IMG/VR virus record: IMGVR_UViG_3300008952_000039
Location: 1,654-65,653 of that record
DNA from: a virus
Lineage: Duplodnaviria > Caudoviricetes
DNA length: 64,000 bases
Reading direction: 5' to 3' (one strand)
Shown here one piece after another: positions 17,858 through 49,989 of this stretch. Position 1 is the first letter of the stretch; every line of letters begins with the position of its first letter. The position numbers and the translations under genes were made by a program. Below the pieces are notes generated by a model, which was given only the letters and a program-made list of their open reading frames with translations, ran no database searches and was not told where the DNA came from.

Positions 17858-18277
17858 TTACCGACCCAAATAAAGAGAAGCTACTCTACAAGCCATTTTT
17901 GTTATCTGCTTTGTGTGTAAAGAAGCCAAAACACTTGCCACATGCTTACACACCCAATTCTTTCCTTCAGGATCTCTAATGTTGGGCTTGGTTCCTTTAG
18001 CTTTGGGAATTCCATAAAGAAAGCTATGTCTGTTAGCGTGATACTCACAGCCTTGGTACTTCCAAAATTTACAATCACAAGAAACTTTGCAGTCCAATGT
18101 CTCAGGGTTTGTGATTTTCACAACCACCTTATATTTCTTCTTTCCGCTTGGAACCGAAAAAGTAGAGATCCCACGATTGCTGAAAATCAATTGAGGGCTA
18201 AACCCTTGTGATTTCTGAAGGATACTTGGAGAGGTCTTTTGTAGGATCTCATCTGGAGTGAGGGCTATTCTTCGCAT
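17858..18277 (-). CDS. SWIM zinc-finger protein
   Basis: KYKVVV...VSCDCKFW...CKHVASVL (CxC...CxH). C-terminal RVASLYL motif. Confidence 0.75.
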   Translation of the reverse strand: MRRIALTPDEILQKTSPSILQKSQGFSPQLIFSNRGISTFSVPSGKKKYKVVVKITNPETLDCKVSCDCKFWKYQGCEYHANRHSFLYGIPKAKGTKPNIRDPEGKNWVCKHVASVLASLHTKQITKMACRVASLYLGR

Positions 18278-19880
18278 TGAAATATCTTCGGGCTACTCGT
18301 TTCGGAGATGGTTGTGATCCCTCTTTGTTCACAAAGCCGTGACCGCTTGGTATGACCTTGGCTGAACCGGGATTGTTGTATACGGCTGGTTGTGTCAGAC
18401 CCTGTGTAGGAGGGTGACCGCCAGTTTCTTGGTTGTAGGGTGCGCCAGTTTGAGGAACAACCCAAGTAGGGTTCTTATTGGTTTCTCTCTCATCATCACC
18501 CTCTGGTGTTCCCTTGTCTTTATCCTTCTTATTCCAATTCTGACCCATCTGGTGAGGATGTTGCTGCTCACGATAGAAAGAAGCCTCTTTCTCTGCTGGC
18601 TCATCCTCATCCATATAAAATATCTGACCGAAGACTGCTGGCTCTTGCATCAAAGGAAGTCCTTTGATTTTGTGCCAGTCAGATTGGCTGCGCCTGAATT
18701 CGTCTGCTTGTGATTTCACTTTCAACGAGACACCATTGGTAGAATCTACCCCAAGACTTTCATTCACCATATCACTTGATACGTCCAGACATTGAGCCTC
18801 ATCATCTACATTGATCAGAGAAGAAGCACAGTCCAAAGCCTCCTGTCTACTTACTGGTATATATTCTAAATCTCCCAATTCAGCGAAGATAAGATTAGCC
18901 AAAGCCATTTCATCCTCTTCTGACATTGGAACAGCTATCTCTAAAAACACTTCCAGAGGAATAGATTGAAGGCGACTGTTTTCCATCAAGAAGGTCACCA
19001 TTCCAGTGAGGGGTGAAACATTGTGAACAACAGCCATTTTCACAGTCTGGTCTATCACATCTATCTTTGGAACAATCCCCACCAAGATTTCTGGCGAAGT
19101 CAGGAGCATACCCCTCTTTAGGGATTTCAATTTAGTCTTTCTTTTGAAGGTGCTTCTAATCTTGTTGCGGAGTTTCACAATGGGGAGTTTCAGTCTTCTC
19201 TTAGCCTTAATCTTTTTGCGGATATAGGCTCCCATATTCTGTCTACGCTTTCTTTTGCGAGTGAGTTTATTCTTCCGAGCTTTTCCGGGATTTCTCCTTT
19301 TCAGACTTTTGAATACCTTGGTTTTCAGACTTTTGAGTTTGAAGCGTACTGCTTGCTTCTTCATCAACTGGTATTCTTCTGGAGTGATATCCATAATCTC
19401 CCCTCCATTTTTATGTTTCCGTTTTTCCTCATATCTCTTACGGGTTTTCTTTGCCTGTGGAGTATCTTCCCACTTCTTTTTCCGATCTTTCTGTTCCCGT
19501 TTTGAGTTCTGTTCCTTATAGTCTGATTTATCTTTGTAATCCGACCAAGAAGTAGCTCCCCCTGCTGGTTTTCGCTCTACCTTTTGAGGGTTTTTTCTGG
19601 CTTTCTCTTCATACTTCTTTTTAGGGGTTTTCTTTCGCTTAATCTTCAAAAGCCGTTTAATTTGCCTTTTCATTCTCCCTTTTAATCTCAACCACTTCTT
19701 TTTAAGCTCAATACGGAATTTGGCTCTGGTTTTCTTTTGCTTTTGAGCAGTAGTAGGAAGGACACCGTTAGATTCATCAGCAGTACGAAACATCCACTCA
19801 GAAGCAATGTGAGAGGCAAAATATCTCGCATCTGCTTCTTCCCATTGAGCTATTAAATCCTCTTGTGAAAAATCATCCAT
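18249..19880 (-). CDS. Highly basic hypothetical protein, possibly an internal head/DNA-condensing protein
   Basis: Two long Lys/Arg-rich tracts followed by an acidic domain. C-terminal KRVARRYF. Confidence 0.65.
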   Translation of the reverse strand: MDDFSQEDLIAQWEEADARYFASHIASEWMFRTADESNGVLPTTAQKQKKTRAKFRIELKKKWLRLKGRMKRQIKRLLKIKRKKTPKKKYEEKARKNPQKVERKPAGGATSWSDYKDKSDYKEQNSKREQKDRKKKWEDTPQAKKTRKRYEEKRKHKNGGEIMDITPEEYQLMKKQAVRFKLKSLKTKVFKSLKRRNPGKARKNKLTRKRKRRQNMGAYIRKKIKAKRRLKLPIVKLRNKIRSTFKRKTKLKSLKRGMLLTSPEILVGIVPKIDVIDQTVKMAVVHNVSPLTGMVTFLMENSRLQSIPLEVFLEIAVPMSEEDEMALANLIFAELGDLEYIPVSRQEALDCASSLINVDDEAQCLDVSSDMVNESLGVDSTNGVSLKVKSQADEFRRSQSDWHKIKGLPLMQEPAVFGQIFYMDEDEPAEKEASFYREQQHPHQMGQNWNKKDKDKGTPEGDDERETNKNPTWVVPQTGAPYNQETGGHPPTQGLTQPAVYNNPGSAKVIPSGHGFVNKEGSQPSPKRVARRYFNAKNSPHSR

Positions 19881-21275
19881 TTACACACCAAGGAATTTAT
19901 CGGTGAGCCTCTGAATAGAAGACTTCATTGTCCTACGGGTGACTGAGTAGCCATCATCCTTAGCTGGAGAGCCATAATCTTCACCCGGCAAACTCTTGGT
20001 TCTCACTTTATCCTTGTGAATTGGTCTGCCACCTTCAGCATTTTCACTTTCAGGAGGGGCATTAAACTGGGGTCTGGAGGTTCCCTTTCCATCTGTTTGT
20101 GAGATTGGTAATTTTTTATCTCTCTTGTCAGAGTGATCTTGCCGAATAGGAAGGGCTTGCTGCTTGTTCTCAGGCGAAGAGGGGCCTGATCTCTCTCTAT
20201 CAATAGCGTTCTCTTCAGGGGATTGGCTCGTATTGGAAGGGAGATTACCCTTACTCTTTTCATTCACAAACGTCTGGTATCCCGGAAGTTGTGATGCTGG
20301 CTGGCTATACCCAACTCTTGATCGGTAGTCTCCTCGTAATTGACCCTTGAAGACAGTCACGATTTTAAGAACATAATTCTGTGTGGTTCCCTTACGGGAA
20401 GGCTGGTATGACCACGATACATTGAGGTTGGGGTTGTAATAAGTATCTGAACCCCTTCCTTGGATGCTTCTAACCTTTCCGTAGAATTCAGCATTAGAAG
20501 AATTCCTACCTTCCTGACCGTCTATCCAACCCCTTCCCATTTTTGCTGTCCAGCCTCTTGCTGCATCACGAATCATAACGGCAGTAACACCACGAAGATC
20601 CATCCTATATTGAGCGTGATGAGTGAAGTAAATCAGATCAATGCTCATAGGGAGTTGATATTCTTTCTTACTTTTCTTACTTTTCATACTTTTAGGAAGT
20701 CCAGAGGGCTTAAACCGCACAACATCCGGCCATAATTTAGCAGCAACTCTGTCTTTAATATGATGAACATCTCCCAAAGCTGCACTGGCTTCTGCCTGAT
20801 CAATAAGACCTTCTTGCAATCCTTTTTCAATAATGGAAATTATCTTTTCCTCTCCACCATCTACACCCAAGGTATGAATGGAATGACCCATTCTTCTGGA
20901 AGCCATTCTACGAAAGAATTGTGAAGCTACTCGTCTGGATGATGGGAATGGAGTTTGTGAAAACCTTATAGCCTCATCAACCATCTCCCTATCTCCAAGA
21001 GGTAGTCTCCCCTTGAAAAATTCCTCTCCCATCAGAGAAAGAGCATAGGAAGTCCTATCCAGAACAGCCTCTAATTTGCTCAATCTGTCTGGCATACCTA
21101 TTACTAAATCACCAGCTACTTCATAAAGATGATCTCTAAAATTAGATTTATCAACAAGATGCTGACCCCGATTCACAAGGTGTCGTAAGCGGTGTGCTTC
21201 CACCCTTGCCTCAGAAACAGAGCCAGTAAGTAAAGCCCAAGCCGACTGACTTGAAGAATATTTCTTACTCATCAT
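19881..21275 (-). CDS. Multidomain protein with DUF4258/BECR-fold RNase-like domain
   Basis: IYFTHHAQYRMDLRGVT...LKIVTVF pattern. Also contains RRVASQFF. Confidence 0.55.
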   Translation of the reverse strand: MMSKKYSSSQSAWALLTGSVSEARVEAHRLRHLVNRGQHLVDKSNFRDHLYEVAGDLVIGMPDRLSKLEAVLDRTSYALSLMGEEFFKGRLPLGDREMVDEAIRFSQTPFPSSRRVASQFFRRMASRRMGHSIHTLGVDGGEEKIISIIEKGLQEGLIDQAEASAALGDVHHIKDRVAAKLWPDVVRFKPSGLPKSMKSKKSKKEYQLPMSIDLIYFTHHAQYRMDLRGVTAVMIRDAARGWTAKMGRGWIDGQEGRNSSNAEFYGKVRSIQGRGSDTYYNPNLNVSWSYQPSRKGTTQNYVLKIVTVFKGQLRGDYRSRVGYSQPASQLPGYQTFVNEKSKGNLPSNTSQSPEENAIDRERSGPSSPENKQQALPIRQDHSDKRDKKLPISQTDGKGTSRPQFNAPPESENAEGGRPIHKDKVRTKSLPGEDYGSPAKDDGYSVTRRTMKSSIQRLTDKFLGV

Positions 21276-21334
21276 AAAATCCTTTTCGATTACTACCTAT
21301 CTATGACTAATAGAAGTATCGGAGAAATAACGAT

Positions 21335-21372
21335 AAAAAAAGACCTCACCCACATAAAGAGGATGAGGTCTT
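21335..21372 (-). terminator. Intrinsic terminator after 21394..22221
   Basis: AAGACCTCA...TGAGGTCTT stem with a U tract on the minus strand. Confidence 0.6.
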
Positions 21373-21393
21373 GGCTTTAGGAAGAATGCCTTC

Positions 21394-22221: not shown

Positions 22222-22272
22222 AGCAACCTCCTATTGATTTCACATTTACATTTTTATCATAGTACCGAGGTA

Positions 22273-23764: not shown

Positions 23765-23831
23765 ATTTCACATTCTCCTACTTTTCACAAAGGGGAAGTT
23801 ATTGACTGAGTACCAATATACCCCCAAAAGT

Positions 23832-28188: not shown

Positions 28189-29064
28189 TTAGCGAGTGAT
28201 TACAAGTCTCGCCAACCCTCTTGGGTTGTAAGCACCAATACCAAGATTTTCAAAGACTGAGAATCCGATAGTACGAGCTTTTGGATCATCGGCAGAAAGA
28301 ACCGTCAATTCTGTACGAACGGGGATACGTCCGAACATTTCCGGCTCGCAGCAAACATAGACTGTTCCAACAGGAACAAGACGAGAAGTAATGATCTGCG
28401 CTCCCCAAAGGGTAGCTTGAAGACCAGTCTTCAACAATGTTGCTTGGCTTTCGATATCCAGAATGTCACGACCAAACTTACGGATGTCAGCATAGTCACG
28501 GGCATTCATAAACACTCTGGCTACTCTCAAGTCGTGTCGTTCGATCAATGCAAAAGCATCAGCAAGAACAGCACCGCTCAAAGGAGCAACGACAGGAAGG
28601 TCTGCGTTGGTTCCAGCAGCAATAGAGTCAAATCCGTTGGTAGCAATGCTATCAAGAACAGCGAAAACTCGCTCGTCTTCAGCAGCTTGGATCTGCGCTC
28701 TTGCCAAATCTTGCGCTCTCTCAATAAGATCGAATCGTCTTTCTTTGATTTGGGTCAGAGGGATTTCAGGATTGGATGCAATCTCAAACAATGGAAAGAT
28801 TACCCTACGAGGCTTTGTGACGGCAAGGATGTTTTGTCCTTCTTCACCAACAACATAAGCTGTAACATCGGGGTCTTTGTCATAGATTGGCAAAGCACCA
28901 TCAGGCAGTTGTTCCACAAGGAAAGTCTTACGACCAACCGCTGTATAATCTCTACGGGTTCTCAGAGGCTGAGTCATAGAGGCAGCGAGTTTCGCACGAC
29001 CCTGTGGAGTTTTGATATATTCAGAAATGATTTTTTGCTTCACAGCATTTGAAACAGTAGACAT
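28189..29064 (-). CDS. Major capsid protein (HK97 fold, compact 291 aa)
   Basis: Last gene of the protease-scaffold-decoration series. Backbone helix DLIERAQDLARAQIQAAEDERVF, LWGAQII, C-terminal GIGAYNPRGL. Strong AAGGAGG RBS and downstream terminator. Confidence 0.85.
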   Translation of the reverse strand: MSTVSNAVKQKIISEYIKTPQGRAKLAASMTQPLRTRRDYTAVGRKTFLVEQLPDGALPIYDKDPDVTAYVVGEEGQNILAVTKPRRVIFPLFEIASNPEIPLTQIKERRFDLIERAQDLARAQIQAAEDERVFAVLDSIATNGFDSIAAGTNADLPVVAPLSGAVLADAFALIERHDLRVARVFMNARDYADIRKFGRDILDIESQATLLKTGLQATLWGAQIITSRLVPVGTVYVCCEPEMFGRIPVRTELTVLSADDPKARTIGFSVFENLGIGAYNPRGLARLVITR

Positions 29065-29919: not shown

Positions 29920-31263
29920 TTACTTGAAGATGTTGCTCACATCAGGAGCAGTTTCCCAAAGATTAGCAAGCTCATTCAATTCATTGGCAGCAGCCGATTT
30001 CTTGACAGAGCCAAGGGTTTTAACTCCCTTTCCAGCTTTGCGAGGGGTTGGACGAAGACGGGAAGCTTTCTTTTCTTCCTTTTCTTCTTCTTCACCATCA
30101 TCATCGCCTTCTTCTTCATCAGCATCTTCTTCGGCTTCTTCTTCTTCGGCTTCTTCCTCTTCTTCTTCATCGGCAGCAAATTTCTCACCGAAAAGATTAG
30201 CAAGAAGATCCTCATCATCAGCCATCATAGCATCTTCATCAGCATCAAGACCCATAGGATCTTCGCCAAGAACCATTTCTTCATTAGCCACTGCTGCTTC
30301 TTCTTCTTCATTAGCCATACAGCCTTCATCAGCCACTACTTCTTCAGGAGCATTGGCTTCTTCTTCCATCTCAGCAAGCATTTCCATTTCGTCAGCGGTA
30401 AGGAAGGCTTGCTTCTTTTCAAGATTCTCAGGGAATTTTGAAGCAGCTTGATCATCAGACATTTCTTGGATGCCATAACCATACTGAGCATCATTCTGAG
30501 AACGACCAGCGTGATCAGCTTTCTTAGCTCTCTCTTCTTTAAGCATTTCAGCAAGCATACGATCTTCAACAGTAGCTTGTCTACGTCTACGGGGCTGTCT
30601 ACGGGGCTGTCTACGAGCAGAACGAGAGAAGCTTTCGCCCAATCCCATAGCCACTTCGTCAGCATCAAGGTCACCGCTCATATCAGCATCCATTGCATCG
30701 AATACTTCTTGGCTTCCACCCCACTCTTCTTGATCAATCAAGTCATTTCCATCAGCATCATATTCATCAAAAACATCGTGACCCATCATATCCATATCTT
30801 CGCCATACTCAGCCATAATAGGATCGATAAAGGCTTGCTTTTGAATACGCTTCAAAGAGGCTTGGATTTGACGATCTGAAAGATCCATCAAATCAAGGGC
30901 TTGATTCTCAATTTGCTCAACAGTAGCACCATCTCCAAGAAGAGACTGAGCAATGCGAATACACTTAGCAGCTTTGCGCTCTACAGAAGCACGAAGACTA
31001 CGGCTTGCCTGCTTGGGGCCACTGGCATCAGCTTTTGCTGCTGGGTGATCCGCTTCCCATCCATAAGAGGCAGGGGCGGGGCCTTGAGCATAAGGGCCAG
31101 AAGAAGGTTCTTCAGCAAAGTCTGCATGAGGATCATTTTGACCTACAAAATACTCATCGCCTTCAGGGTCTTCTTTAAAAGCTGGATGGTCAGCATCCCA
31201 ACCATATGAAGCAGGGGGTGGGGAAGCCTTACGGTTCCAAGTCTTACGGTTTCTTCGTGACAT
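29920..31263 (-). CDS. Capsid scaffolding/core protein, acidic, with an EF-hand pair
   Basis: Between protease and capsid genes. Very acidic and helical. DADGNDLIDQEE and DADMSGDLDADE loops. Confidence 0.65.
   Translation of the reverse strand: MSRRNRKTWNRKASPPPASYGWDADHPAFKEDPEGDEYFVGQNDPHADFAEEPSSGPYAQGPAPASYGWEADHPAAKADASGPKQASRSLRASVERKAAKCIRIAQSLLGDGATVEQIENQALDLMDLSDRQIQASLKRIQKQAFIDPIMAEYGEDMDMMGHDVFDEYDADGNDLIDQEEWGGSQEVFDAMDADMSGDLDADEVAMGLGESFSRSARRQPRRQPRRRRQATVEDRMLAEMLKEERAKKADHAGRSQNDAQYGYGIQEMSDDQAASKFPENLEKKQAFLTADEMEMLAEMEEEANAPEEVVADEGCMANEEEEAAVANEEMVLGEDPMGLDADEDAMMADDEDLLANLFGEKFAADEEEEEEAEEEEAEEDADEEEGDDDGEEEEKEEKKASRLRPTPRKAGKGVKTLGSVKKSAAANELNELANLWETAPDVSNIFK
30578..30615. 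repeat. Short tandem repeat (12-nt GTCTACGGGGCT unit) encoding RRQPRRQPRRRRQ
   Basis: Seen directly in the sequence. Confidence 0.7.
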
Positions 31264-31267: not shown

Positions 31268-32704
31268 TTATCTCCTTTTAGATTTATTCCTCATTGAGAT
31301 AATTCCCCCAAGCTTGAGAAGGGTTTTCTTTTCTCTCTGAGTAAGTTTTGATCCTTTAAATTGGGAACAATGAGAAAGATACTCCTCCTCAGAGGAATAA
31401 TCTGTAGTAGCACCAATAGATAGTGCTGTTCTATAAATAGATATCGGTATAGGAAGACCAACGAAATTATTATACTCAGCAAGAGAATTAATTAAGTCAG
31501 CTTTGTTTACACTGTGGGCAACAATTGTTCTAACATCTTGTAAATACTGTCTTTGTCTTTTACTGATTTTTCGGGTCTTTTCCGCACCCTGCTTAATAAT
31601 GTTGTCATTGGGTTCTGCGGAACTTTCTTCTGGTGAGGGTGACGGATTTCTTTTTTGAGCCTCTTCTTCACTATTTAATTGTTCTCTAATTTTTTTCTTT
31701 ACTTTATTAAGAATTATCTGCTCAATATCATCTTGAAGATCCTTAATGGGATCACTCTCATCATCACCACCCTCATCATCATCACCATCATCACCACCAA
31801 AATCAAAAGCATTTTTAGCAGCTTTCAGTGTCGATTCAGAAGACCATTCTTTGGGTGGTTGTGAAAGTATTTCATCAGCCTTTCTCTGCATTTCCACTTC
31901 AAGGCTCTCTGGATGAAGAATGTTTCGCATTACTGCGCCAGTAAATGCTGGAGTAGCAACCCAAGAGGCTTCTATGAAAGTCACACCGCCTGTTGGGTCT
32001 ATGGATTTATGACCACATAATTCTGCAATACGGTGTTTGTGTCCGTTCTCATCAAAGAAGGTATTCCCCTTCTCATAACGAACATGTTTACACATCTCTG
32101 TCTCATCAACAGCAACGTGACCACACTTCGTACACTGAGTAAAATCTACAGTGCAGCCCATACTCATAGAATCCATCTTTCCGTTTTCAATAGCTTTCAC
32201 AAGGTCAGCATGCTTTCTATGGGTAGCTACCAGAATGTCTACATAAACACTGTCACCAATATCTCTGGCAACAGCATCTATAATACGACCTTTTGAAAGG
32301 TCTTCTACTTGAACATGCTCTACGAAATTATGCGCTCCAATGAATGTCCGATAAGACTTCATTAAGACATCTCTATCCCAACAATCCAGATTGTTGTTGA
32401 TGAATTTATCACAAGTACTTTTTACTCTGTAGTTTCCGAATTTTCTATTTACACGAAAACCGTCTTCTGTTGAACCACCAAGTTTCACATTTGAAGGCTC
32501 AAAAGTGTCAACAGAAGCCACAATTGTAGCGTGTGTTAAAAGATACTCATCAGGAGAGAAAGCTCCACCAAGAATACCAGAGGCTTGCTCCACAAGATCC
32601 ACGGCTAAATTTTTCTTATGAGAAGCAGTGCGAATTTTGCCCCAAGTCCTTCCAGATACTTGGGGCTGAATAACAGTTGCTTTAGCATATTTCATGAAAG
32701 CCAT
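31268..32704 (-). CDS. Prohead (capsid maturation) protease
   Basis: Between portal and scaffold. FVEH...KGRIIDA...SMSMGC...EASWV..PA resembles HK97/assemblin-like proteases. CxxC..C.H zinc insertion. Confidence 0.75.
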   Translation of the reverse strand: MAFMKYAKATVIQPQVSGRTWGKIRTASHKKNLAVDLVEQASGILGGAFSPDEYLLTHATIVASVDTFEPSNVKLGGSTEDGFRVNRKFGNYRVKSTCDKFINNNLDCWDRDVLMKSYRTFIGAHNFVEHVQVEDLSKGRIIDAVARDIGDSVYVDILVATHRKHADLVKAIENGKMDSMSMGCTVDFTQCTKCGHVAVDETEMCKHVRYEKGNTFFDENGHKHRIAELCGHKSIDPTGGVTFIEASWVATPAFTGAVMRNILHPESLEVEMQRKADEILSQPPKEWSSESTLKAAKNAFDFGGDDGDDDEGGDDESDPIKDLQDDIEQIILNKVKKKIREQLNSEEEAQKRNPSPSPEESSAEPNDNIIKQGAEKTRKISKRQRQYLQDVRTIVAHSVNKADLINSLAEYNNFVGLPIPISIYRTALSIGATTDYSSEEEYLSHCSQFKGSKLTQREKKTLLKLGGIISMRNKSKRR

Positions 32705-32705: not shown

Positions 32706-33308
32706 CTAATCTCCTAAGATATCCTCTCTGCGTATAAGAAAAAGACAGGACGGACACCCAAACAGCTTAACACTACCTTCATTATCTATCTTTTTATAGA
32801 CCGCTTTTTTCAACCCAACAAAACCACACTTAGGACACTCATATTGCCCCGAACCTGTTTCCCTTTTACAAGGTCTATATTGTCTTCCTTTAGAAGACCA
32901 GTAAAGAGCCTTTTTGGTATATGCAGCAGCAACCCTTTTAGAAAGGATTTCCGACTGTTGCTGTGCTTTTGCGGAAGCCCTGTCTTCAGGAACAGCATCA
33001 AGCACATCAATAACATCACCAAGAGGCTCATAAGGGCCCCCAGAAACCTCTACTGTTCCAGCACCGCCGGGAACGCTATTGTGATGAGGTTCGTTCATAG
33101 GACTGTCGTGACGAACCCTTTGTAGATTTTCCACTGGGTATCTTGTTGAACCGTGAGGAAATTCTACATCCACCATCCCAATAGCGGGCCAAACTGCAAC
33201 CACCCGACCAGCAAAATCAGCAGAATTCCCATAGGGAACAACGGAGTCCCCCACACGAAATTCACTGGCTCTGGCTTGATAATCGACATAGACAGAAGAG
33301 GTTTTCAC
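32706..33308 (-). CDS. Hypothetical protein with SH3-like N-domain and C-terminal zinc ribbon
   Basis: FRVGD.V...GRVVAV....VDVEF, CPKC...CPSC and KRVAAAY. Confidence 0.7.
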   Translation of the reverse strand: MKTSSVYVDYQARASEFRVGDSVVPYGNSADFAGRVVAVWPAIGMVDVEFPHGSTRYPVENLQRVRHDSPMNEPHHNSVPGGAGTVEVSGGPYEPLGDVIDVLDAVPEDRASAKAQQQSEILSKRVAAAYTKKALYWSSKGRQYRPCKRETGSGQYECPKCGFVGLKKAVYKKIDNEGSVKLFGCPSCLFLIRREDILGD

Positions 33309-34169: not shown

Positions 34170-37100
34170 CGTTTGGTTCCTCCGAATGGAATTATTGGGT
34201 GTTCTTAATTTTTGGTACAGTCCTACACCTATATTTATATCAGTATAGGATAATGATTGAATTTTTGAAGATGTCTTAGTTTTGGATACCCATTTTTGGG
34301 CTGCTTCCTGATCTTTAAAGTACTTAGTGTACTTCTTGCTCTTGGCTCCCCAAGGCTTCTCACCTATGGGGTATTCTACCTTCCACACTTCCCCAGCCTT
34401 CTTCTGGTTGGCTTCTAAAGCTAAATTTATACAGTTTGTGTAGTCACTAAAGGATGCCCCACCAAACAAATGGTCAAAGTGCTGAGATAAACTTTCTAAG
34501 TGTTTCTCTTTAATTACACCATTATTTAAGGAAGCCAGTTTTTCCAAAATCCCAAGGCGCATATTCTGGAGAACTTTCTCCTCATCACTACCACTTTCTT
34601 CGCTTTCTTCGGAGCCTTCTTCATCTGAAAGCTCCGCTGCAATATCCTCCATAAGAGTTGAGAAAGTTTCTTGGTACTCTGCAACATCAATACTCTCTGA
34701 AGATTCATCTCTTTCATCGCCTTCGGACTTCGTGGAGGCACTGATCATATCATTGAATTCATCAAGACCATCATAATTAGAATAGTATTCTGCCACTAAA
34801 CTCTTCAAAAATTCAGCATTAGCAGGGTTCGCAACGGCTGCACCAGCAAATTTCTTTGCAATCGGAAAGTGTTCTCCAAGCTCTTGGAGGGTGTGGTTTT
34901 GGATGCGATCACGAATGAAGTCTCTTTTATCTTCTTCTGATCCTGTCATAGCTTTTATGGCTTTATTGATGTTTCTATCAGAGCCGCCCTCACTAACATT
35001 CCCCATCAGAACAGCAGAAACTCCTCTTTTCTTAGTAGCCATTTTATTCAAGTCCATTGCAGCCTGTACCGCTTTCAACTGCTTGAATTCTTGAGATTCC
35101 TTATCCGTAGTATTCTCTATTTTCTCTGCAAGGTTTTTCTGAAGCGCAGCAACCGTAGATTTATCCATCTTCTTTATCTGACGGAAAGCAGCAGCCGACC
35201 TTTTATCTCCATCCTTCTGACCTTGTATCTTTTCCCCAAGCCCCACTCTCATTGGGTCAAGTAGGAAAGCGTTGGCAACAGCAAGGCTCTTTGCATGGGC
35301 TGAGAATTCATCTAAAGACATCTTGGAGGTGTCTTTCACCTTCAAAGCTGCTTCTGCTGCTTTCACCTCATCCTTAGAAGGAACCTCATCTGTATCTGTG
35401 AATTTCTTAACCGTAGCTTTAATAGCCTCAATCATATGCTTCTGGTATGTTTCTGGAGATACAGCATCTTCTTTCAAATCCGCTATCTCTTTCTCCATCT
35501 TCTCAATCTTAGCTTCATCATAAGTATCTGTACCCTTCTTGTCCTTCTCTGCTTTTAGCTTCTTAATAAGGTCATTTCTTTTCTTGGTAACTTTATCGGT
35601 AGGAAGATTTTTAGCAGCAAGAAAGGAGAGATCCATAGAAGGAATGGTTTCCATCAATGCAGCAATTTCCACAATGTTCTCTTCTTTTAGAGCCTTTAGC
35701 TCTGCTGCATCCTGTTCTTCTGGAGAGAGGTTTTCTTCTTTCTTCTTTGGTTCTTCTTTCTTCTTTGGTTCTTCTTTCTTCTTTGGTTCTTCTTTCTTCT
35801 TAGGATCAGATTCGCCCTCTTCTACATCAGATTTTGCATCAGAAGATTCATCCAAATTTTCCTCAACTTCTTCCTCAACTTCTTCCTCAACTTCTTCGTC
35901 TACAGTATCTTCATCTTCAGTATTTTCATCCTCATCCAACTCTTCTTCAATCTCTTCATCCTCACTGGAAAGCCAACTTTCTGCCTTGTTTTTATCTTTA
36001 AAATACCTAACAACAGGCTTATTTTTGTCATTTGTCAGACTTTCGTGTACTGCTTTCCACTTACCACTTGGAGTGGTTTTTAAGCCAGCATACATCCACA
36101 GCATTGCTACACGAACAGCAGCCCGTTTGTAATCTTCGTGTTTTAGGGAGAGATCCTTATCTCCGTCTACACCCGATTTTAGATCCTCATCATCTTCTTC
36201 AAGATGTCTCTTCCGAAGGTCATAGCGTGGGGGTTTTAGTTTAGGCTTCTGTTTCACAAAGGCTTCAGCCTGTTCATCTTCTTTTTCACTTTTGGTCTTC
36301 TTGGCTATGTGAAGTGAAGCCACACGAACAGAAGAAGATTTATCAAGGCTCTTGATAACGGTTCCATCTTTCATAAAGGTATCCTCAAGATGGTTGACCA
36401 AGTACTGGCTTTTCAAAGTGGACGAAGTATGTCCTACTATCTTTGCCACCTCATCCAGAGCCTTTGTGAATTCACTTTTAAGAACCTTCTCTCGCTCTTT
36501 AGAATCTTCTGGGAGCTTTCCTCCCTCAGACCGAACCTCTTTTAGCTTGGCTTTCATCTCTTGATTTGCGTGGAAGCCCCGTAGATCTTTAGCACTAATT
36601 CCATAAGGTTTCAGATAGACATTCACATGTGAGCCAGTGACACAGGTGTCCTCATCTCCGTATGTGAAAATGTTCTGGTCTTTGGATTTCCCTTTGGCAG
36701 CTTTTTTAAGCGCAGCCACAACCTTGCTGTCCGTGACTTCCTTTTCGTGGTCTACACCAGATTTACCAGTGTATGTGAAAACCGCTTTAGAGCCTTTGAA
36801 AGATATATGCTTTCCTTCCAGACAAGACACTCCATAGTGACCGTTGTCGGCAGAGGCTTTGTTCCCTACTCGTTCGTAGGTGCAGTCAATAACAGCCACA
36901 ACCAGAGCCACCATCCTCTTTCTCTCATCGTCTGAGGTCAGGTCTTTTTGGTATTCCTTTCTGAGATTAGAGATGTTCTCTCTCAGCTTTTCAATCCTCT
37001 CACCCTTCTTTCGATCTCTGTGTTGGACTTGTCGTTCGCTGTATTCATAGACGGTCATCTCATCACCGTCTTGTGTTTTCACTTTCTTCTTGCTCTTGTA

Positions 37101-38384
37101 TTTCGCAGATCGGAGTAGGTGTTGGATGGCTACTCTACGAGCCATCTTGGACTGCATAGCTTTCTTGGTAGTCTCTTTCTTACTCTCTTTCTTCTTGTCA
37201 AAGTGTTTCACATTGTCTTCAAAGAAACTGGAATCTTGCTGTAAAAGTAATTCTATATCCTCATCTGTGGTCGCTTCCATCGTGTCAGCGATATCGTGGA
37301 TAAGTTTTTCCAAATCCTTAATCTTGGCTTCGTCTTCGGCTCCCAGCTTCGTAAAGACATCTCCAACAGATTTCACACCCTCTGTAATCGCATTCCAAAT
37401 AGAGTATTCATATAAAGTAGAAGTGTTGAAGGGCAGAGGTATTCCTTTCATACCAAGCAATTGAATAGTCATATTCAGATTTTCTGCTTGTTCAGCAGCT
37501 AAGAAGGCACTGTTTGGATCTCCGAAAATACCCTTCAGTTGCTCCTTAATGCTCTCTTTTTCCTCTTCAGTATGTTTATCGCTTTCATCTACCTGCTTGA
37601 AAAGCTCATCCTGCTTCTTCTTAGTGAGGACTTCCTGTGTTCCCTTAACCGCTGCTCCAAAAACAACGTGAAGTGAATAGCTATTCAGAAAAGCATTGCC
37701 AACAGCAGCAGCCGCAAGACCCGTACCTGCAACAGAACCAAGGGCAAGCGCACCAGCAATACTTCCCGTATAGACCAGACCACTGTAAAGGGATTTCTTT
37801 TCATCCTTTGTGAGAAGAGGCTTCTCACCTTTTGCAAGCCGTGTGGCAACGGTTACGGGGGCTGTGTAAGGTCTTGTGAAATCAACTGCTTCACTAATAG
37901 CAGAATCCCGCATGGATCTCCAGATTACTCCAGCTATCTTTTTAGAGTTGCCTCTCAAGTGGGATGCGCCTGCGGAGAGAGCCTTCTTTCGATAGTCTTT
38001 GTCAAAGACGAATTGCTTTGTAGCAGCAGGGGTGTTCTCCAAGACTTTTCTCATAGATTTGGAAACTTTCTTAGCCTTTTCCATAAAAGAGCTAAGACGA
38101 GAAGTAGCTTCCTTTTCAGAAACAGTATTCTTCTCAAACCATTCTACATCTGCTTTGGAAAAGGAAGCACTACCACCCTTCTCTTCTTCTTTCTTAGGGA
38201 TGTCTTCTTGATCCTTGACCGAGTGATTACTTTTGTCGGCTTTTGGATGTTCCTTTATATATTCTTCCAATTTAAATTGAGAAGGAAATTCTTTAGCTGT
38301 TCTTTGAGCAGGGGTCGTTGTGCGATCTGAAATACCAATCGCATCCATCTCCTCAAAATATTTGCCTAACCGAACAGACATCAA
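33318..38384 (-). CDS. 1688-aa multidomain head-associated protein containing a DNA topoisomerase IB domain
   Basis: Topo IB catalytic motifs in order: ERVGN, FTYTGKSGVDH, AKDLRGFHAN, VGHT..TLKSQYL (about 36360-37060). Located between portal and prohead protease. Confidence 0.85.
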   Translation of the reverse strand: MMSVRLGKYFEEMDAIGISDRTTTPAQRTAKEFPSQFKLEEYIKEHPKADKSNHSVKDQEDIPKKEEEKGGSASFSKADVEWFEKNTVSEKEATSRLSSFMEKAKKVSKSMRKVLENTPAATKQFVFDKDYRKKALSAGASHLRGNSKKIAGVIWRSMRDSAISEAVDFTRPYTAPVTVATRLAKGEKPLLTKDEKKSLYSGLVYTGSIAGALALGSVAGTGLAAAAVGNAFLNSYSLHVVFGAAVKGTQEVLTKKKQDELFKQVDESDKHTEEEKESIKEQLKGIFGDPNSAFLAAEQAENLNMTIQLLGMKGIPLPFNTSTLYEYSIWNAITEGVKSVGDVFTKLGAEDEAKIKDLEKLIHDIADTMEATTDEDIELLLQQDSSFFEDNVKHFDKKKESKKETTKKAMQSKMARRVAIQHLLRSAKYKSKKKVKTQDGDEMTVYEYSERQVQHRDRKKGERIEKLRENISNLRKEYQKDLTSDDERKRMVALVVAVIDCTYERVGNKASADNGHYGVSCLEGKHISFKGSKAVFTYTGKSGVDHEKEVTDSKVVAALKKAAKGKSKDQNIFTYGDEDTCVTGSHVNVYLKPYGISAKDLRGFHANQEMKAKLKEVRSEGGKLPEDSKEREKVLKSEFTKALDEVAKIVGHTSSTLKSQYLVNHLEDTFMKDGTVIKSLDKSSSVRVASLHIAKKTKSEKEDEQAEAFVKQKPKLKPPRYDLRKRHLEEDDEDLKSGVDGDKDLSLKHEDYKRAAVRVAMLWMYAGLKTTPSGKWKAVHESLTNDKNKPVVRYFKDKNKAESWLSSEDEEIEEELDEDENTEDEDTVDEEVEEEVEEEVEENLDESSDAKSDVEEGESDPKKKEEPKKKEEPKKKEEPKKKEENLSPEEQDAAELKALKEENIVEIAALMETIPSMDLSFLAAKNLPTDKVTKKRNDLIKKLKAEKDKKGTDTYDEAKIEKMEKEIADLKEDAVSPETYQKHMIEAIKATVKKFTDTDEVPSKDEVKAAEAALKVKDTSKMSLDEFSAHAKSLAVANAFLLDPMRVGLGEKIQGQKDGDKRSAAAFRQIKKMDKSTVAALQKNLAEKIENTTDKESQEFKQLKAVQAAMDLNKMATKKRGVSAVLMGNVSEGGSDRNINKAIKAMTGSEEDKRDFIRDRIQNHTLQELGEHFPIAKKFAGAAVANPANAEFLKSLVAEYYSNYDGLDEFNDMISASTKSEGDERDESSESIDVAEYQETFSTLMEDIAAELSDEEGSEESEESGSDEEKVLQNMRLGILEKLASLNNGVIKEKHLESLSQHFDHLFGGASFSDYTNCINLALEANQKKAGEVWKVEYPIGEKPWGAKSKKYTKYFKDQEAAQKWVSKTKTSSKIQSLSYTDINIGVGLYQKLRTPNNSIRRNQTMTQISKKSALQVSQTLDRIASVFEANFEALGIPEKIATDFAFRCDLLSDAVEKQADVFKKALDDLDPVLEPGFNPDDVGREVGGPLEGDADEAFMQGEFSRQENRELRDLQESGAVSEVNEEPRPPQAGRQANLDDALSRLSKEAGEVHEIGSLRDSLKICAAKLSASGVSEVKSLAGAADKLVAALDKIRDAMISMEASGEANLGVMAAADRSCNAIGEVLPFLEGLCNSLSAQDSDSPVQQLQMQSMLEGSSSKLEKLVGLAAKIVSSAMSEMGGSDKGAE
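35733..35804. repeat. 18-nt tandem repeat x4 encoding (PKKKEE)4
   Basis: TTCTTCTTTCTTCTTTGG x3 plus one variant copy. A nearby 12-nt repeat at about 35859-35894 encodes EEVE. Confidence 0.9.
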
Positions 38385-38429: not shown

Positions 38430-40103
38430 TTAGAACCGACCACCGCCCTCTTCAGGCTTCTCATAGTTAAGTCCTAATTTCTCTGCAATAATCTCTATAA
38501 CATCACTGTTCTCAGCCAATTTCTGTGCTGCATCGTTATAGATACTACGAACCATTTCATTGAAGGTAGCATCATTGATGCCCCACAAATCTCTTTCCAA
38601 CTTCAAACGGGTAGAAATCGGATCTATGTTCAATAGCTCCAAAATCACATCAATATCAAGTGATCCCTTCTGATATAGATTGAACAAAGCATCGAAAGTT
38701 TCACTATTATCCCTCAACCCAAGCCTTGTGAAAGACAGAGAAGGATATACGACCTTTTCACCATCTTCCCCTTCAACAAAACCCATTCTCTTACACATAG
38801 GCTTAAACAGTTTTTCCTCAACAAAGTCCTGTAGGATCTCCCGCAGAAGCATATAGCGTGTGTTGATAACTTCCAGATTTATCCTATCACCAGAATACGA
38901 GCTTTCTCCACTCAGGAGGCTTTCAGTCACTCCAAGCCCTGCATATAGCTGCCTATCTGTCAGGTCATACTCAGAGGATAATTCCAATAGACGAGCAGAG
39001 GCTCCCATCTCTTCCCAAGTCACTTGGAAGTTGGTCACAATCGTATAATCAGGATCTTGGAGAGCAAGGTCAACCTGATCTCTCAGAGATTCCGTATCAT
39101 GTTCATCCATATCCTCTGCATAGACCAGCCTGAAAGGGGTCATATGACGAGAGGCAATACTTGTCTGAGCCTGTCTGAGTTTATCTCTATAGACAAGGGT
39201 TCTCATACAACGCTCAAGTATAGAATGTCCTCTTGGTTCATATTGTGATTTCTTTCGGCTCATATAATAGACAAAAGAGCCAGCATCAGGATCTGTACCA
39301 AGAGGGATATTCTGCCCATCACGGATAGAATCCACAACATCTTGAGGCATTGAGTCCACAATCCTCTGAGCCTGTTTATCTCCCATTGAAGCCTTTTCGA
39401 TAATATCCTTGGTCTTACTATCAGGAACCAATTCAATGATTTTCTCATTTGTGAAAGGGAAACTTTCCATGTGAATTTGTTCTGGTGGGAGAATTCTTAT
39501 GGCTGACCAGCCGTGGAAATTCCTCTTCGTCCACCTAACAGCACGTTCATCAGCATCTTCTCTTTTTTCCCACTTCTCAACAGCTTTTCCGTGTTCGTCC
39601 AATTCTCTGATTTGTTCGTGAGTGATGTCCTTGGGCATGTCAGGACTTTCATCCTCAACAAATATATTCACTTCACCAACTAAGTAATAATCGTGAACAA
39701 TCTCTATAAGCCTGTGAAGTAAACCAATCTTCTTAGACCACCTCTGGCAGAATTCCAATGCTTGATTACCAAGCTCTCTGTCCTTAGTATCAGGGTTTCC
39801 AAGCCTGATCTTACTGAGAGGTAATTCTGTATGGAGATCAATAGCCTGTCCAACAAAGGGGTCTGTCTTATAGAAAAACCGATAGTAGTTTCTCTGTTCG
39901 TCCAGAGATTGTGGTAATTCCAGAAAGTCTGTTGATAGCTCTGGAGAATAGAAATTCCCTCCAGAACCTAAAGTGTTTCCAGCAACATTCGGATACCCAA
40001 TTCTACGCATAGCAGAAGTGGTCGCAATTTTACGAGGTCTTCCAATGCTCAATTTCGGTCTGTCAGGAGCCTTCCCAACAACTTTTTCATCATCATTAGT
40101 CAT
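38430..40103 (-). CDS. Portal protein
   Basis: 557 aa, downstream of terL. YRFFY..DPFVGQAIDLH.ELP, PRG.SIL and LYAGLGV.ESLLSG patterns typical of portals. Confidence 0.85.
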   Translation of the reverse strand: MTNDDEKVVGKAPDRPKLSIGRPRKIATTSAMRRIGYPNVAGNTLGSGGNFYSPELSTDFLELPQSLDEQRNYYRFFYKTDPFVGQAIDLHTELPLSKIRLGNPDTKDRELGNQALEFCQRWSKKIGLLHRLIEIVHDYYLVGEVNIFVEDESPDMPKDITHEQIRELDEHGKAVEKWEKREDADERAVRWTKRNFHGWSAIRILPPEQIHMESFPFTNEKIIELVPDSKTKDIIEKASMGDKQAQRIVDSMPQDVVDSIRDGQNIPLGTDPDAGSFVYYMSRKKSQYEPRGHSILERCMRTLVYRDKLRQAQTSIASRHMTPFRLVYAEDMDEHDTESLRDQVDLALQDPDYTIVTNFQVTWEEMGASARLLELSSEYDLTDRQLYAGLGVTESLLSGESSYSGDRINLEVINTRYMLLREILQDFVEEKLFKPMCKRMGFVEGEDGEKVVYPSLSFTRLGLRDNSETFDALFNLYQKGSLDIDVILELLNIDPISTRLKLERDLWGINDATFNEMVRSIYNDAAQKLAENSDVIEIIAEKLGLNYEKPEEGGGRF

Positions 40104-40646: not shown

Positions 40647-42470
40647 CTACCGCTTTTTAACCTGTCTGGAAGTATGGCTACCTGATCTAAGTAGCTTTCT
40701 CCGTTGAGAAATCTGAGAGGCAGCTTTCGGCTTGTGTTGAAACCTACCCTTACCTCCCTTAGATATATAGGTACTATTGCCGATTTTCTGGCTTGCTAAG
40801 TACACCATTCTCACAAGAGCATCTGAAAGGTCATCGTGCTTCCCCTTCATATTCGGAGCCTCTACTGTAACAAGGTACTTGGAGTGCTTCGTAGCCTGAA
40901 GAGATAAAAGTTCTTCAATATAATCACAATGAGTTTGTCCTTCTGGTATTGGACTATCATAAAGAGAAATTTTCTGATCCCACATCATATCTTTGAAGGT
41001 CTTAAATATTTCAGAAGAAATGGTCTTCGTCATATGTTTAGCCTTCATTTGCTTTAGCCCTCTTTTGGACAGTGCCTGCTCTAATGGTATTCCAGCCCAC
41101 TGGTCAAACAGACCCTCTGAAATATAAAATCTCTTTGACAGAGATAAAATCCAATCTGCCACATCATCAAATTCCAATCTCTCTTTATCCTTGAAGTCAC
41201 CCTCTCCAGCTTTTATCTGATCAACCAAGTCTACAACAATACAGGGATTTCCCTTCTTAGTCTCAATGTGTCCTATAGCGATAGCTGTACCATCACCAAC
41301 CAATCCAAGGTCAAGCCCTAAGAAATAAGTGGTTCCGTATCTTCCTTGCGAAACTGCTTTGAGAGAAGGATCTATACAAGCCTCTAAATCTCTTCTATCT
41401 TCAATCCAACCTCTGGTTCTGTCTGTAAATTCTCCACCATACTCTGTAAAGAAAACTGTAGTGTCTTTTATATAGTGCTTCTCAAATTCACTGGCTGGAA
41501 CGGTGGGGTTCACTTCCCAAGTAGGTGCTTGTATCGCAAGCATATTACTTGCTGCCTTGCCTCCAGACATAGCAATCTGGAACAATTTATAGAATTGACC
41601 CTGCCTACCTAATGGAGATGAAATTGAGATGATGCGCCCCTCAACTGGGCCAATTGGAATTCGACTATCGTTCACATCTTTAGGTGAAAAAGCAGAAGTA
41701 GAAGGTGTGACCGCATTGTAGACTGCTTCGGCTCCAGATTGACCTTTGTCTGTGAAGTGAGCTACCTCATCTAAAATCACAACCAAGTTACCAGCACCAC
41801 GAAGCCCCTTCGCAACGCAAGATCGAAATGTGATTTTTAATGTAGCTTTAGCCGTAGGGTCATCTGCATATACGCCATACCTATCAATATCTTGTGGAGT
41901 CTGGAATCTGGCATAACTCTGAGTGTTGTTAGCTGTGTAAGGTGCAAAAAACGCACAATTTCTAAAGTGACCGCTCACTTCTTGGTACAAAAGACCTGCC
42001 TGATCCTTATCAGTAGCAACTGAAATGATCTGGATATTATTAGAAGAGGGCAGACCATAGTATGCCTGTGGATCTCCTTTTGAGATTAATTTATATGTCT
42101 CATACGCTGCAATACAAGCACTGAGGGTGGTCTTTCCCGATCTACGTCCAATTGAAAGGATCATTTCCCGTCTTTCTTTACCTTTCTCAACTTTCTTTAT
42201 ATTACAGCGACCCTCTTTAAATAGATGCTCTAAGTATTCTGCTTCTGTGAGGTGTTGGTAATTCTCCCTTCTCCAATCAGAAATAGGGATTGTTTTCACT
42301 TTGTCCTCTAAGGGAATACCATAATGCGCTTTCAAAATTACCTTCTGAACAGGGAAAAGGCGCATACCCAAACCCCAATCACTTTCTATAAAAGTGATTA
42401 TATCTGCTATCGCTCCTTTTTTAGACCCCTTAGTCCGACCAACAGAAGTGGCGATTGAAGACAGGCTCAT
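40647..42470 (-). CDS. terL: Terminase large subunit
   Basis: Q motif (LFPVQ), Walker A GRRSGKT, Walker B VVILDE, ISSP coupling motif, RNase H-like GLDLG and HDDLSDA. Confidence 0.93.
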   Translation of the reverse strand: MSLSSIATSVGRTKGSKKGAIADIITFIESDWGLGMRLFPVQKVILKAHYGIPLEDKVKTIPISDWRRENYQHLTEAEYLEHLFKEGRCNIKKVEKGKERREMILSIGRRSGKTTLSACIAAYETYKLISKGDPQAYYGLPSSNNIQIISVATDKDQAGLLYQEVSGHFRNCAFFAPYTANNTQSYARFQTPQDIDRYGVYADDPTAKATLKITFRSCVAKGLRGAGNLVVILDEVAHFTDKGQSGAEAVYNAVTPSTSAFSPKDVNDSRIPIGPVEGRIISISSPLGRQGQFYKLFQIAMSGGKAASNMLAIQAPTWEVNPTVPASEFEKHYIKDTTVFFTEYGGEFTDRTRGWIEDRRDLEACIDPSLKAVSQGRYGTTYFLGLDLGLVGDGTAIAIGHIETKKGNPCIVVDLVDQIKAGEGDFKDKERLEFDDVADWILSLSKRFYISEGLFDQWAGIPLEQALSKRGLKQMKAKHMTKTISSEIFKTFKDMMWDQKISLYDSPIPEGQTHCDYIEELLSLQATKHSKYLVTVEAPNMKGKHDDLSDALVRMVYLASQKIGNSTYISKGGKGRFQHKPKAASQISQRRKLLRSGSHTSRQVKKR

Positions 42471-43778: not shown

Positions 43779-43787
43779 ATCAAACTC

Positions 43788-44315: not shown

Positions 44316-44317
44316 AG

Positions 44318-44641
44318 TTAAATGTCTCTATAAAAATAGTCTTTTTCAAAATCATCATTCTGCTGCCTATGAGCAAGCTCACTCAATTCTCTCTGAGTAA
44401 AATGTTCATAGGCTTGTGGTATTGTTGGAAGTCCAATCAAATTAGGGTCAAACTCAGCCGTGGTATCTTCTTCTTCGTCCTCTTCACCATAGCGAAGACC
44501 ACGAACCATCCCACTCGCTGGGCCAAGTTTATGTTCCCCACTTGCTCCCTTTTGATTACTCTTTTGAAGTCTATGAATTGTAGCTCTCAGATAGCGTGAA
44601 GCTATTTTCGCAGCAGAATTTTGCAGGTTGAATGACATCAT
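44318..44641 (-). CDS. Hypothetical protein with N-terminal KIASRYL motif
   Basis: 107 aa, TAATG-coupled to the upstream gene. Confidence 0.6.
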   Translation of the reverse strand: MMSFNLQNSAAKIASRYLRATIHRLQKSNQKGASGEHKLGPASGMVRGLRYGEEDEEEDTTAEFDPNLIGLPTIPQAYEHFTQRELSELAHRQQNDDFEKDYFYRDI

Positions 44642-46749: not shown

Positions 46750-47389
46750 GTTTCTGCCTCATAAAACGGAGTGCAACCCTTGAAGCCTTTGGCTCATACA
46801 ACGAAGCGGTCTTCTTACGAGCGGTTTTTGGAGATGTGTGTTGCTCATCCATTTCCTCTTCTTGTTCTTCTGCCCAAGATTCAGGGTCTTTCTTTATATC
46901 TTCAGCATCCTCAATAATCTGAGCAACCTCTTCCTTCTCTTCTGGAGATTCCTGTCTTGAAACTGCTGACCAATGTGGAGCCTGCACCTCATCATAGAGA
47001 GTATCTGAAAGAGATGAGAAAGCTTCAACAGCATTCATATAAGCTTTTCTCATCTCATTAATTCTAAAAACGTATCCTTTCCCACCCAAACAACCATCAG
47101 GAGATACATCTGCACTTCTCACTTTTGAGAAGGTGCTATACGCACTCAAAGCATGACCAAGAGCAGCATTGGTAGATCTAAGAACCTTCGCCAAGCATTT
47201 CACTTTCTTAGGTTGGAAAGCATAATCAGGAGTAATCTGCCGTTCAGAGGCTCCAGTGTCACCCCAAGCCCATTCACCGCCTTCAGACTTATCTTTAATA
47301 AATCTAACTTCACCAGCCGTTCTGGTCATTGGGGGCTTCTTCTCTCCGAAGATTGTTGGCCCCCAAGCTTTGATTAGAGCATCTTTCAT
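46742..47389 (-). CDS. Hypothetical protein with C-terminal RVALRFM motif
   Basis: 215 aa, overlaps the downstream start. Confidence 0.7.
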   Translation of the reverse strand: MKDALIKAWGPTIFGEKKPPMTRTAGEVRFIKDKSEGGEWAWGDTGASERQITPDYAFQPKKVKCLAKVLRSTNAALGHALSAYSTFSKVRSADVSPDGCLGGKGYVFRINEMRKAYMNAVEAFSSLSDTLYDEVQAPHWSAVSRQESPEEKEEVAQIIEDAEDIKKDPESWAEEQEEEMDEQHTSPKTARKKTASLYEPKASRVALRFMRQKHD

Positions 47390-47390
47390 T

Positions 47391-47963: not shown

Positions 47964-48027
47964 GGTTACCCTCTACATCAAAATACGATTTCTCAATACA
48001 TTAAGATTATAGAGACATAAACGACTA

Positions 48028-49233: not shown

Positions 49234-49240
49234 AATTCAC

Positions 49241-49681
49241 CTACACGAATACGTCATATCCGATGCTACCCGTATAGGTGACACCAGTTTCGATTGTAAA
49301 ACCGTTGACTGTTTTACTGGTAATTCTGGCAGGAACGAAATCTGCCATTGAAAGAATGACCCGATAAGTTGTATCGTCCATTGCAGCTAAGAAGGTCACA
49401 TCAACTGTGGTTGCAGCCGTGAAGGTGGCAAACCCATTTACAGCACTTGTACTCATAACATCTAACACCTGTGTAATTGCTGTCCGAATATCGCTAATCA
49501 CGGAATTCGGCAGAGAAGAATAAGAATCTTGGATTAAACCAAAAGGGGTCTGTATATTTCTAACAGAAATGGAATTCTCATCTATATACACAATCGTGAA
49601 ATAGTAGATCTGTGTGCCTGTTCCCGAAGAATATGTGAAATCGGCTTGTGATAATGCTAATGCCATATCCCACCCTACCAA
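49241..49681 (-). CDS. Structural protein sharing its C-terminal beta domain with 48028..49233
   Basis: VTF...MDDTTYRV...ITSKTVNGFTI versus FSF..QPDLNYAV...VSNKAVGSFAI. The true start is probably MALALSQ. Confidence 0.55.
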   Translation of the reverse strand: MVGWDMALALSQADFTYSSGTGTQIYYFTIVYIDENSISVRNIQTPFGLIQDSYSSLPNSVISDIRTAITQVLDVMSTSAVNGFATFTAATTVDVTFLAAMDDTTYRVILSMADFVPARITSKTVNGFTIETGVTYTGSIGYDVFV

Positions 49682-49989
49682 ATACCAGAGGTTTCAAACC
49701 CACGCTTCTCCAGCCAATCTTTAAGATCAACCAAAGACCCGTGATTAGAAGACCAAATAGAAATGTAATCAAAACCCGTCTGTATACCAAGATCCTTAAT
49801 CTCAGTTATAGAACCAAGTTTCACCTTACCATCCCTCAAAGACTTCAATAAAGAAGGGAGGGATTGAAAGTCTACCGAAGAGGTAGCATAGATCTTTACC
49901 CGATACTCATTAGTAGCTCTTTTTCTAAGCCACTGACGAGCAAGGTCTTTCGCCATAATTACTACTTTTTCACTTGGTTTGTCTTTCAT
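49675..49989 (-). CDS. Hypothetical protein, first gene of the late block
   Basis: 104 aa with GGGGAG RBS and a late-type motif at 50018-50030. Confidence 0.65.
   Translation of the reverse strand: MKDKPSEKVVIMAKDLARQWLRKRATNEYRVKIYATSSVDFQSLPSLLKSLRDGKVKLGSITEIKDLGIQTGFDYISIWSSNHGSLVDLKDWLEKRGFETSGIW

Follow-up and report, generated by a model that had tools for sequence, protein, structure and literature searches.

The window analyzed here is a stretch of 64,000 bases (IMG/VR record IMGVR_UViG_3300008952_000039) out of a 65,653-base contig, and its - strand carries nearly all genes. Since its major capsid protein (MCP) matched proteins of LR745208.1, Tunturiibacter phage Tunturi_5 and Bacillus phage G (gp27), with identities of 89%, 47% and 40%, respectively, the window is, by its sequence, a fragment of a huge-phage genome, kin of the 485-kb uncultured phage LR745208.1 and more distantly of phage G. 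LR745208.1 and the window have a common gene order, and their proteins are 30-90% identical. Gene identities were taken from Pfam and PHROGs matches. The subject of this analysis is a short motif, R-V-A-x-x-aromatic-L in its simplest form and called the tag below, which recurs in unrelated proteins encoded around the head genes and which an earlier note on this DNA had proposed as a candidate capsid-targeting signal of packaged proteins.

The motif was searched with the strict pattern R[VI]Axx[YFWH][LIMF] and scored also by a position matrix. The matrix was built without the instance in the window's own 215-amino-acid (aa) protein, was partly trained on LR745208.1 instances, and at a score of at least 8 is expected to give about 1.3 matches per shuffled proteome. 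Every instance listed in the earlier note was found present, on the - strand, and a further pattern match was located inside the MCP:

17867..17887, - strand: tag RVASLYL in the 139-aa SWIM-like protein (17858-18277), at residues 131-137, stopping 2 residues short of the C-terminus; score 25.9.
18279..18299, - strand: tag RVARRYF in a very basic 543-aa protein (18249-19880), at residues 528-534, stopping 9 residues short of the C-terminus; score 29.0.
20913..20933, - strand: tag RVASQFF, residues 115-121 of a 464-aa protein (19881-21275), where its conserved N-terminal domain ends.
28507..28527, - strand: pattern match RVARVFM inside the MCP, at MCP residue 180; score 10.5.
32916..32936, - strand: tag-like RVAAAYT, a looser match, at residue 125 of a 200-aa module (32706-33308).
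36093..36113, - strand: tag RVAMLWM, at residue 758 of a 1688-aa polyprotein; score 19.9.
36306..36326, - strand: tag RVASLHI, at residue 687 of the 1688-aa polyprotein, 28 residues past its Pfam match to topoisomerase IB (Topo IB).
37116..37136, - strand: tag RVAIQHL, in the 1688-aa polyprotein at residue 417, 37 residues ahead of the Topo IB match.
44588..44608, - strand: tag KIASRYL, a looser match, residues 12-18 of a 107-aa protein (44318-44641); score 21.6.
46760..46780, - strand: tag RVALRFM in the 215-aa protein (46742-47389), at residues 204-210, stopping 5 residues short of the C-terminus.
49927..49947, - strand: weak candidate DLARQWL, near the N-terminus of a 104-aa protein (49675-49989); score 7.7.

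With this score DLARQWL, already given as weak in the earlier note, was not separable from chance. The statement that the motif is absent from the MCP was wrong at the level of a pattern match. As RVARVFM had the lowest matrix score among all strict matches and phage G gp27 has VVTKIVM at the same place, which we take to be a core strand of HK97-type capsid proteins, this match is probably a chance one and not a tag.

The recurrence of the motif was far above expectation. Strict matches numbered 8 in the 20,927 aa encoded in the window, compared with 0.0925 expected from within-protein shuffles, and none of 2000 shuffles reached 8. When a six-frame translation was searched (131,302 residues, the 20,927 coding ones included), 0 matches were found in the other frames. 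Compared with 512,000 patterns built in the same way, from three exact residues, two free positions and two residue classes, the motif ranked second (Poisson P 3e-12, 6 proteins), and the sole pattern ranked higher was the low-complexity EEE..[acid][acid]. All 8 strict matches fell within 17858-47389, and none was found in the tail module (5,442 aa) or in the replication module (4,440 aa), in agreement with the earlier remark that the motif is not seen in replication and tail genes. An excess in the head region over both shuffles and replication proteins, which had been set as a check on the proposal, was therefore observed. We regard it as almost certain that the motif is real and portable.

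The same pattern was counted in relatives of the window. In IMG/VR, 561 stretches encode an MCP relative, of which 80 loci around the MCP gene were kept (1,112 open reading frames (ORFs), 288,023 aa), their MCPs being 91-95% identical to that of the window; LR745208.1, a complete genome of 639 ORFs and 152,987 aa, was taken whole. The 80 loci gave 97 strict matches, compared with 2.9 expected in all; 55 of these were the MCP's own match and 42 were others, one of them a further MCP variant. In LR745208.1 there were 8 strict matches (1.63 expected) and 15 loose ones (4.1 expected).

Pooling the window, LR745208.1 and the IMG/VR loci gave 66 non-redundant instances. Since columns that the search pattern does not select were also biased, namely S at -3 (24/66), A or P at -2 (32/66), S at +3 (22/66) and R at +4 (25/66), the consensus was written as S-[AP]-x-[RK]-V-A-[S/x]-[R/x]-[YFHW]-[LM]. 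A preference for termini and domain borders, noticed earlier by eye, was evident: 23 of the 66 instances lay no more than 25 aa from a protein end where 9.7 were expected, and 0 of 5000 random placements reached 23. By a count from the instance table, about 10 of the 66 were within 20 residues of the N-terminus, about 10 were near the C-terminus and the remainder were internal. Tandem tags were also seen, one case being the C-terminus of a 387-aa LR745208.1 protein. Conservation in homologues, another check set by the earlier note, was found in a particular form, the motif being kept while its position shifts among homologues. Judged from these sequences, the motif is a portable short linear peptide placed at either end of unrelated proteins or at their domain joints, and it avoids folded cores. 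As no tag was found in the head regions of Tunturi_5 and phage G, its distribution restricts it to the clade whose MCPs are about 90% identical.

The movement of the tag was clearest in the family of the 215-aa protein, for which 472 database homologues were found. Among the best 120 homologues, 68 had a matrix score of at least 10, with the tag in the N-terminal leader only in 55, in the C-terminal tail only in 8, and in both in 5. In the homologues in which both core anchors could be located, 0 tags were present in 16,108 residues of the conserved core. The family consensus begins MxxxxPxPxRVAxRxMxRTAGEVRF. The window copy has lost the leader tag and carries a C-terminal tag after an acidic linker instead. 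In a structure model of this protein the tag was a separate helix (201-212) following a non-helical stretch (186-200), at a mean predicted local distance difference test score (pLDDT) of only 67.9; the tag is probably an amphipathic helix of two turns preceded by a flexible linker. When the model was compared with the PDB using Foldseek, no match at E <=0.001 was obtained, only generic helical hairpins, and the protein atlas gave no usable match. Locus searches returned 0 relatives for the 215-aa protein and 1 for the 139-aa protein, and the 107-aa protein had 2 database matches, one of which was the window's own.

In the family of the N-terminal domain of the 464-aa protein, the tag followed a P/S-rich linker in 11/15 IMG/VR orthologues and in 6/8 database homologues, and the homologues were mostly proteins of 120-145 aa ending just past the tag. 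A different arrangement was found for the 543-aa and 139-aa proteins, whose ORFs overlap by 29 nt in different frames (18249-18277). In LR745208.1 (521 aa) and in locus L003 (648 aa) their counterparts form one fused gene with two tandem tags at the junction; in the window the 543-aa ORF ends with a tag and the 139-aa ORF starts with a degenerate one. The split lies exactly between the tandem tags and reflects either the fission of a gene or a frameshift, which may be genuine or an error of sequencing.

Three tags of the window are located in the 1688-aa polyprotein, which is encoded within the following group of head genes:

40647..42470, - strand: large terminase subunit (Pfam/PHROGs).
38430..40103, - strand: portal protein (PHROGs); no tag and no [KR]-x-A-[SAG] word.
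33318-38384, - strand: 1688-aa polyprotein with Topo IB domain (Pfam/PHROGs).
31268..32704, - strand: head-maturation protease, 478 aa (PHROG match).
29920..31263, - strand: acidic scaffold-like protein, 447 aa.
28189-29064, - strand: MCP (Pfam/PHROGs).

RVAIQHL (417) and RVASLHI (687) flank the Topo IB domain and coincide with indels relative to the LR745208.1 orthologue, which has a 7-residue gap at the former and lacks an 11-residue insertion that includes the latter. In LR745208.1 itself Topo IB is a separate 508-aa protein that carries tags at its own C-terminus. A tag was found 31-37 residues ahead of the Topo IB match in the window and in loci L004, L053 and L062. Of 25 large proteins, 8 polyproteins had Pfam matches, and by our reading of the tables 14/14 of their tags were outside the Pfam envelopes. 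The window's polyprotein had one Pfam match, Topo IB, and its relatives in L074, L004 and L014 had two each. The polyproteins encoded between the portal and protease genes of L004, L014 and L074 join Topo IB, HAD_SAK_1, a tRNA-ligase-type 2H phosphoesterase and a nucleotidyltransferase of the PolyA_pol-head type, which by their domain matches would make up an RNA-repair-like enzyme set.

The 200-aa module consists of a small N-terminal beta-barrel, a low-confidence linker and a zinc ribbon, and many relatives have it fused to their polyprotein as the C-terminal domain. The barrel resembles Tudor/KOW/SH3-like folds (best match 6wau_A, Z 7.1, root mean square deviation 2.6, 53 residues aligned); since this Z is under the bar of 8, only a common arrangement is indicated. 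A promoter common to the tagged genes was sought in LR745208.1 and none was found, the single strong element there not being ahead of tagged genes. That element, CTAAAAA followed after about 16 bases by CCGATAGGGT, occurs about 55 times in LR745208.1 (L083-L092) as a promoter-like sequence just ahead of the ATG of small genes, mostly in 1-160 kb, and is absent from the window's contig.

The head proteins were analyzed for a second, shorter word, [KR]-x-A-[SAG]. In the head/cargo block [KR].A[SAG] occurred 48 times, compared with 27.3 expected, and 0 of 300 shuffles reached 48; elsewhere it was found at the expected frequency, 11 times in the tail block (9.7 expected) and 6 times in the replication block (6.0 expected). 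The word was conserved at particular places. Residues 24-27 of the head protease, R-[TV]-A-S (alignment consensus RVAS), matched it in 24/25 sequences. In the scaffold-like protein, of which the N-domain and a C-terminal tail are conserved, three such words lie in the last 50 residues and were kept in 28/30, 24/30 and 30/30 sequences. The 215-aa family has an RTAG word between leader and core in 60/60. The pattern of conservation suggests that [KR]-x-A-[SAG] may be the cut site of the head protease, with cleavage after [KR]-x-A.

The head protease itself has a C-terminal extension of about 190 aa that is missing from its homologues in Tunturi_5 (287 aa) and phage G (300 aa). The protein contains an insert resembling a Cys4/His zinc ribbon, the cysteines of which are invariant, as well as an acidic linker and, at the C-terminus, a conserved domain of about 110 aa; no sequence match to the protease was found in the PDB. 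The C-terminal tail of the scaffold-like protein is invariant (VKTLG...L.LWE.APDVS..F), and from this conservation it is probably the capsid-binding end. An element PASYGW..DHPA is present twice in the same protein. Within the clade the MCP was 92% identical, whereas identity was 47% for the protease, 40% for the scaffold-like protein and 51% for the decoration-like protein. The MCP thus appears to be under unusually strong constraint, and with neighbors at 40-51% it could offer a conserved receptor.

No account of the tag was found in the literature, in which the motif letters themselves were not searched. The tag was compared with known systems. The capsid targeting sequence (CTS) of T4 ends in L/I-x-E, the site of gp21. 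In T4 the internal proteins IPI-III and Alt have a short conserved peptide as their only common feature, which directs them into the prohead scaffolding core (PMC3012670). The present tag is likewise a short conserved peptide on diverse proteins, and in both cases a head protease is encoded alongside. The T4 leader has about 10 residues and is N-terminal, whereas the huge-phage tag is N-terminal, C-terminal or internal and sometimes tandem; its consensus, R-V-A-x-R-aromatic-L, is without L/I-x-E, the candidate cut word being [KR]-x-A-[SAG]; and the huge-phage protease belongs to another PHROG family and has the added C-terminal extension. The T4 analogy drawn in the earlier note accordingly stands in its logic and fails in two particulars, the strictly N-terminal position and the L/I-x-E ending.

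Encapsulin cargo-loading peptides are short, conserved, located after a flexible linker at a terminus and portable between unrelated cargo proteins, and the encapsulin shell has the HK97 fold. The huge-phage tag is also short and conserved and also follows a flexible linker at the termini of unrelated proteins; the peptide sequence differs, however, and the huge phage has a portal, a large terminase, a tail sheath and DNA. On these analogies the tag would be CTS-like in logic and encapsulin-peptide-like in architecture, and a member of neither class. The scaffold-like protein has a further counterpart. Herpesvirus assemblin sites are cleaved after Ala with a small next residue, and the cut releases the MCP-binding C-terminal tail of the scaffold; in the scaffold-like protein, three conserved words of the form [KR]-x-A-[SAG] similarly stand ahead of a conserved C-terminal tail. 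Finally, phage polyvalent proteins are described as large multi-enzyme proteins, predicted to be packaged and injected and usually encoded beside portal or head genes (Iyer et al. 2017, PMC5512222), much like the tagged polyproteins; as described there, their processing is assigned to metallopeptidase domains within the proteins and not to a common short tag at module borders.

Taken with gene context, the T4 and encapsulin precedents and the co-enriched [KR]-x-A-[SAG] word suggest that the tag loads proteins into the capsid. The 1688-aa gene sits between the portal and protease genes, the richest tag bearers of the relatives are polyproteins encoded at that same place, and the other bearers lie around the head genes; one of these is an extremely basic protein. 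In the scheme we propose, this phage-G-related clade of huge phages would equip unrelated proteins with the tag, at one or the other terminus or at a domain joint, and the tag would dock the basic protein, the SWIM protein and the Topo IB and RNA-repair-type modules of the polyproteins to a conserved part of the assembling prohead. The docked proteins would be enclosed in the head and later delivered with the DNA, and the head protease would then trim or separate the modules at [KR]-x-A-[SAG] words. The receptor may be the MCP, given its unusual conservation, or else the scaffold-like protein, the protease with its extension or the Tudor-like module. We put the chances that prohead loading is the role of the tag at about even. 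A narrower version, in which the tag acts like an encapsulin cargo-loading peptide in a tailed phage, as a position-independent helix on the luminal face of the MCP of which 7-10 residues suffice for enclosure and injection, is unlikely. Of the capsid-targeting proposal in the earlier note, what stood is a selected, portable peptide on unrelated proteins; the comparison with T4 on which it leaned holds in logic only. Among the proteins it named as cargo, the very basic 543-aa protein and the polyprotein with Topo IB do bear the tag, and the gene of the latter lies between those of the portal and the protease, the usual place for packaged proteins; one LR745208.1 bearer, an RNA ligase, does not fit the proposed set.

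Several results weigh against prohead loading. In LR745208.1 only 7 of 27 matrix matches (score at least 12; 1.95 expected, with the matrix partly trained there) were in the 41-kb head region; the remaining ones were scattered, three of them in the RNA ligase, so a partner outside the head has to be considered. Tunturi_5 and phage G have related MCP, protease and portal proteins and no tag in their head regions, which shows that a capsid of this type can do without the tag. A further [KR].A[SAG] word was present within 15-18 residues of the tag in only 9/65 cases upstream and 4/65 downstream, so that a layout of a tag with an adjacent cut site is not general, and the portal has no such word. 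Lastly, RVAxxY in the 200-aa module is a fixed part of a conserved helix ahead of the zinc ribbon and not a portable tail.

The scatter in LR745208.1 raises the possibility that the motif docks its bearers to a common partner unrelated to the head, such as a phage or host chaperone, a repair or replication factory, the membrane or a host target. With 20 of the 27 LR745208.1 matrix matches outside the 41-kb head region and three in an RNA ligase, and with tagged modules in relatives that are nucleic-acid enzymes (Topo IB, HAD_SAK_1, 2H phosphoesterase and PolyA_pol-type nucleotidyltransferase) and could cooperate in the cell, such a partner is conceivable. Huge phages often have scattered structural genes, however, which makes the LR745208.1 scatter weak evidence; in the window the matches were all in the head/cargo block with 0 in the replication or tail blocks, and the richest bearers are the polyproteins between portal and protease. 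We consider a non-head partner improbable. To our knowledge the tag is unlike beta-clamp-binding, twin-arginine (Tat), SSB-tail, FtsZ-tail or ClpX motifs, a comparison for which no search was made.

The agreement of the tag's opening R-V-A-S with the conserved word at residues 24-27 of the protease, and its fit to the [KR].A[SAG] word enriched in the head/cargo block, could also mean that the whole motif is an extended recognition or cleavage site of the head-maturation protease, cut after R-V-A and marking the cuts of polyproteins and pro-peptides, for which termini and domain joints would be equally suitable. Only 29/65 tags, however, have one of the small residues S, A and G where P1' would be, and the conserved words found in the scaffold-like protein, in the protease and in the 215-aa core are without the R at +4, the aromatic residue at +5 and the L/M at +6 of the tag. 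The expected main substrates, the scaffold-like protein and the protease, had no tag at a matrix score of at least 10, and removing 4-12 variable terminal residues would serve no evident purpose unless the peptide acts before cleavage. In our estimate the cut-site explanation of the tag is a doubtful one.

That the recurrence reflects chance, amino-acid composition or residual similarity of paralogous proteins is hardly credible: although the MCP match looks fortuitous and some LR745208.1 bearers have longer N-terminal similarity and may be paralogues, chance and composition are excluded by the shuffles, the ranking among 512,000 patterns and the count in other frames, the enrichment persists in independent relatives (80 IMG/VR loci, LR745208.1), and shared descent of the bearers cannot explain a tag that switches ends within one orthologous family and appears in others as clean short indels.

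If the tag is a capsid address label, sequence alone could suffice to list the proteins delivered together with the DNA by these uncultured huge phages. For the window the cargo would then be a histone-like basic protein, the SWIM protein and the Topo IB polyprotein, to which the relatives would add enzymes of the RNA-repair type. Whereas the T4 signal is N-terminal, a loading signal would here act at either terminus or within a polyprotein, and a portable tag of 7-10 residues would provide a handle for loading foreign proteins into large capsids. If the tag binds something else, it would still mark a hub interaction common to many proteins of a widespread phage clade, as judged by the 561 IMG/VR stretches with an MCP relative.

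Outside the head/cargo block the following genes were identified:

50035-63930: replication block, with clamp loader, clamp, primase, RecA/UvsX-like protein, SbcCD-like nuclease and sigma factor.
50035-50685: phage-encoded sigma-70 region-4 protein, at the border of the replication and head/cargo blocks (Pfam/PHROGs).
3658-8946: 1762-aa tail sheath homologue, homologous to Tunturi_5 gp326 (1204 aa).

The 1762-aa sheath protein aligned to Tunturi_5 gp326 over residues 1-562 and 1315-1761, which points to a large central insertion.

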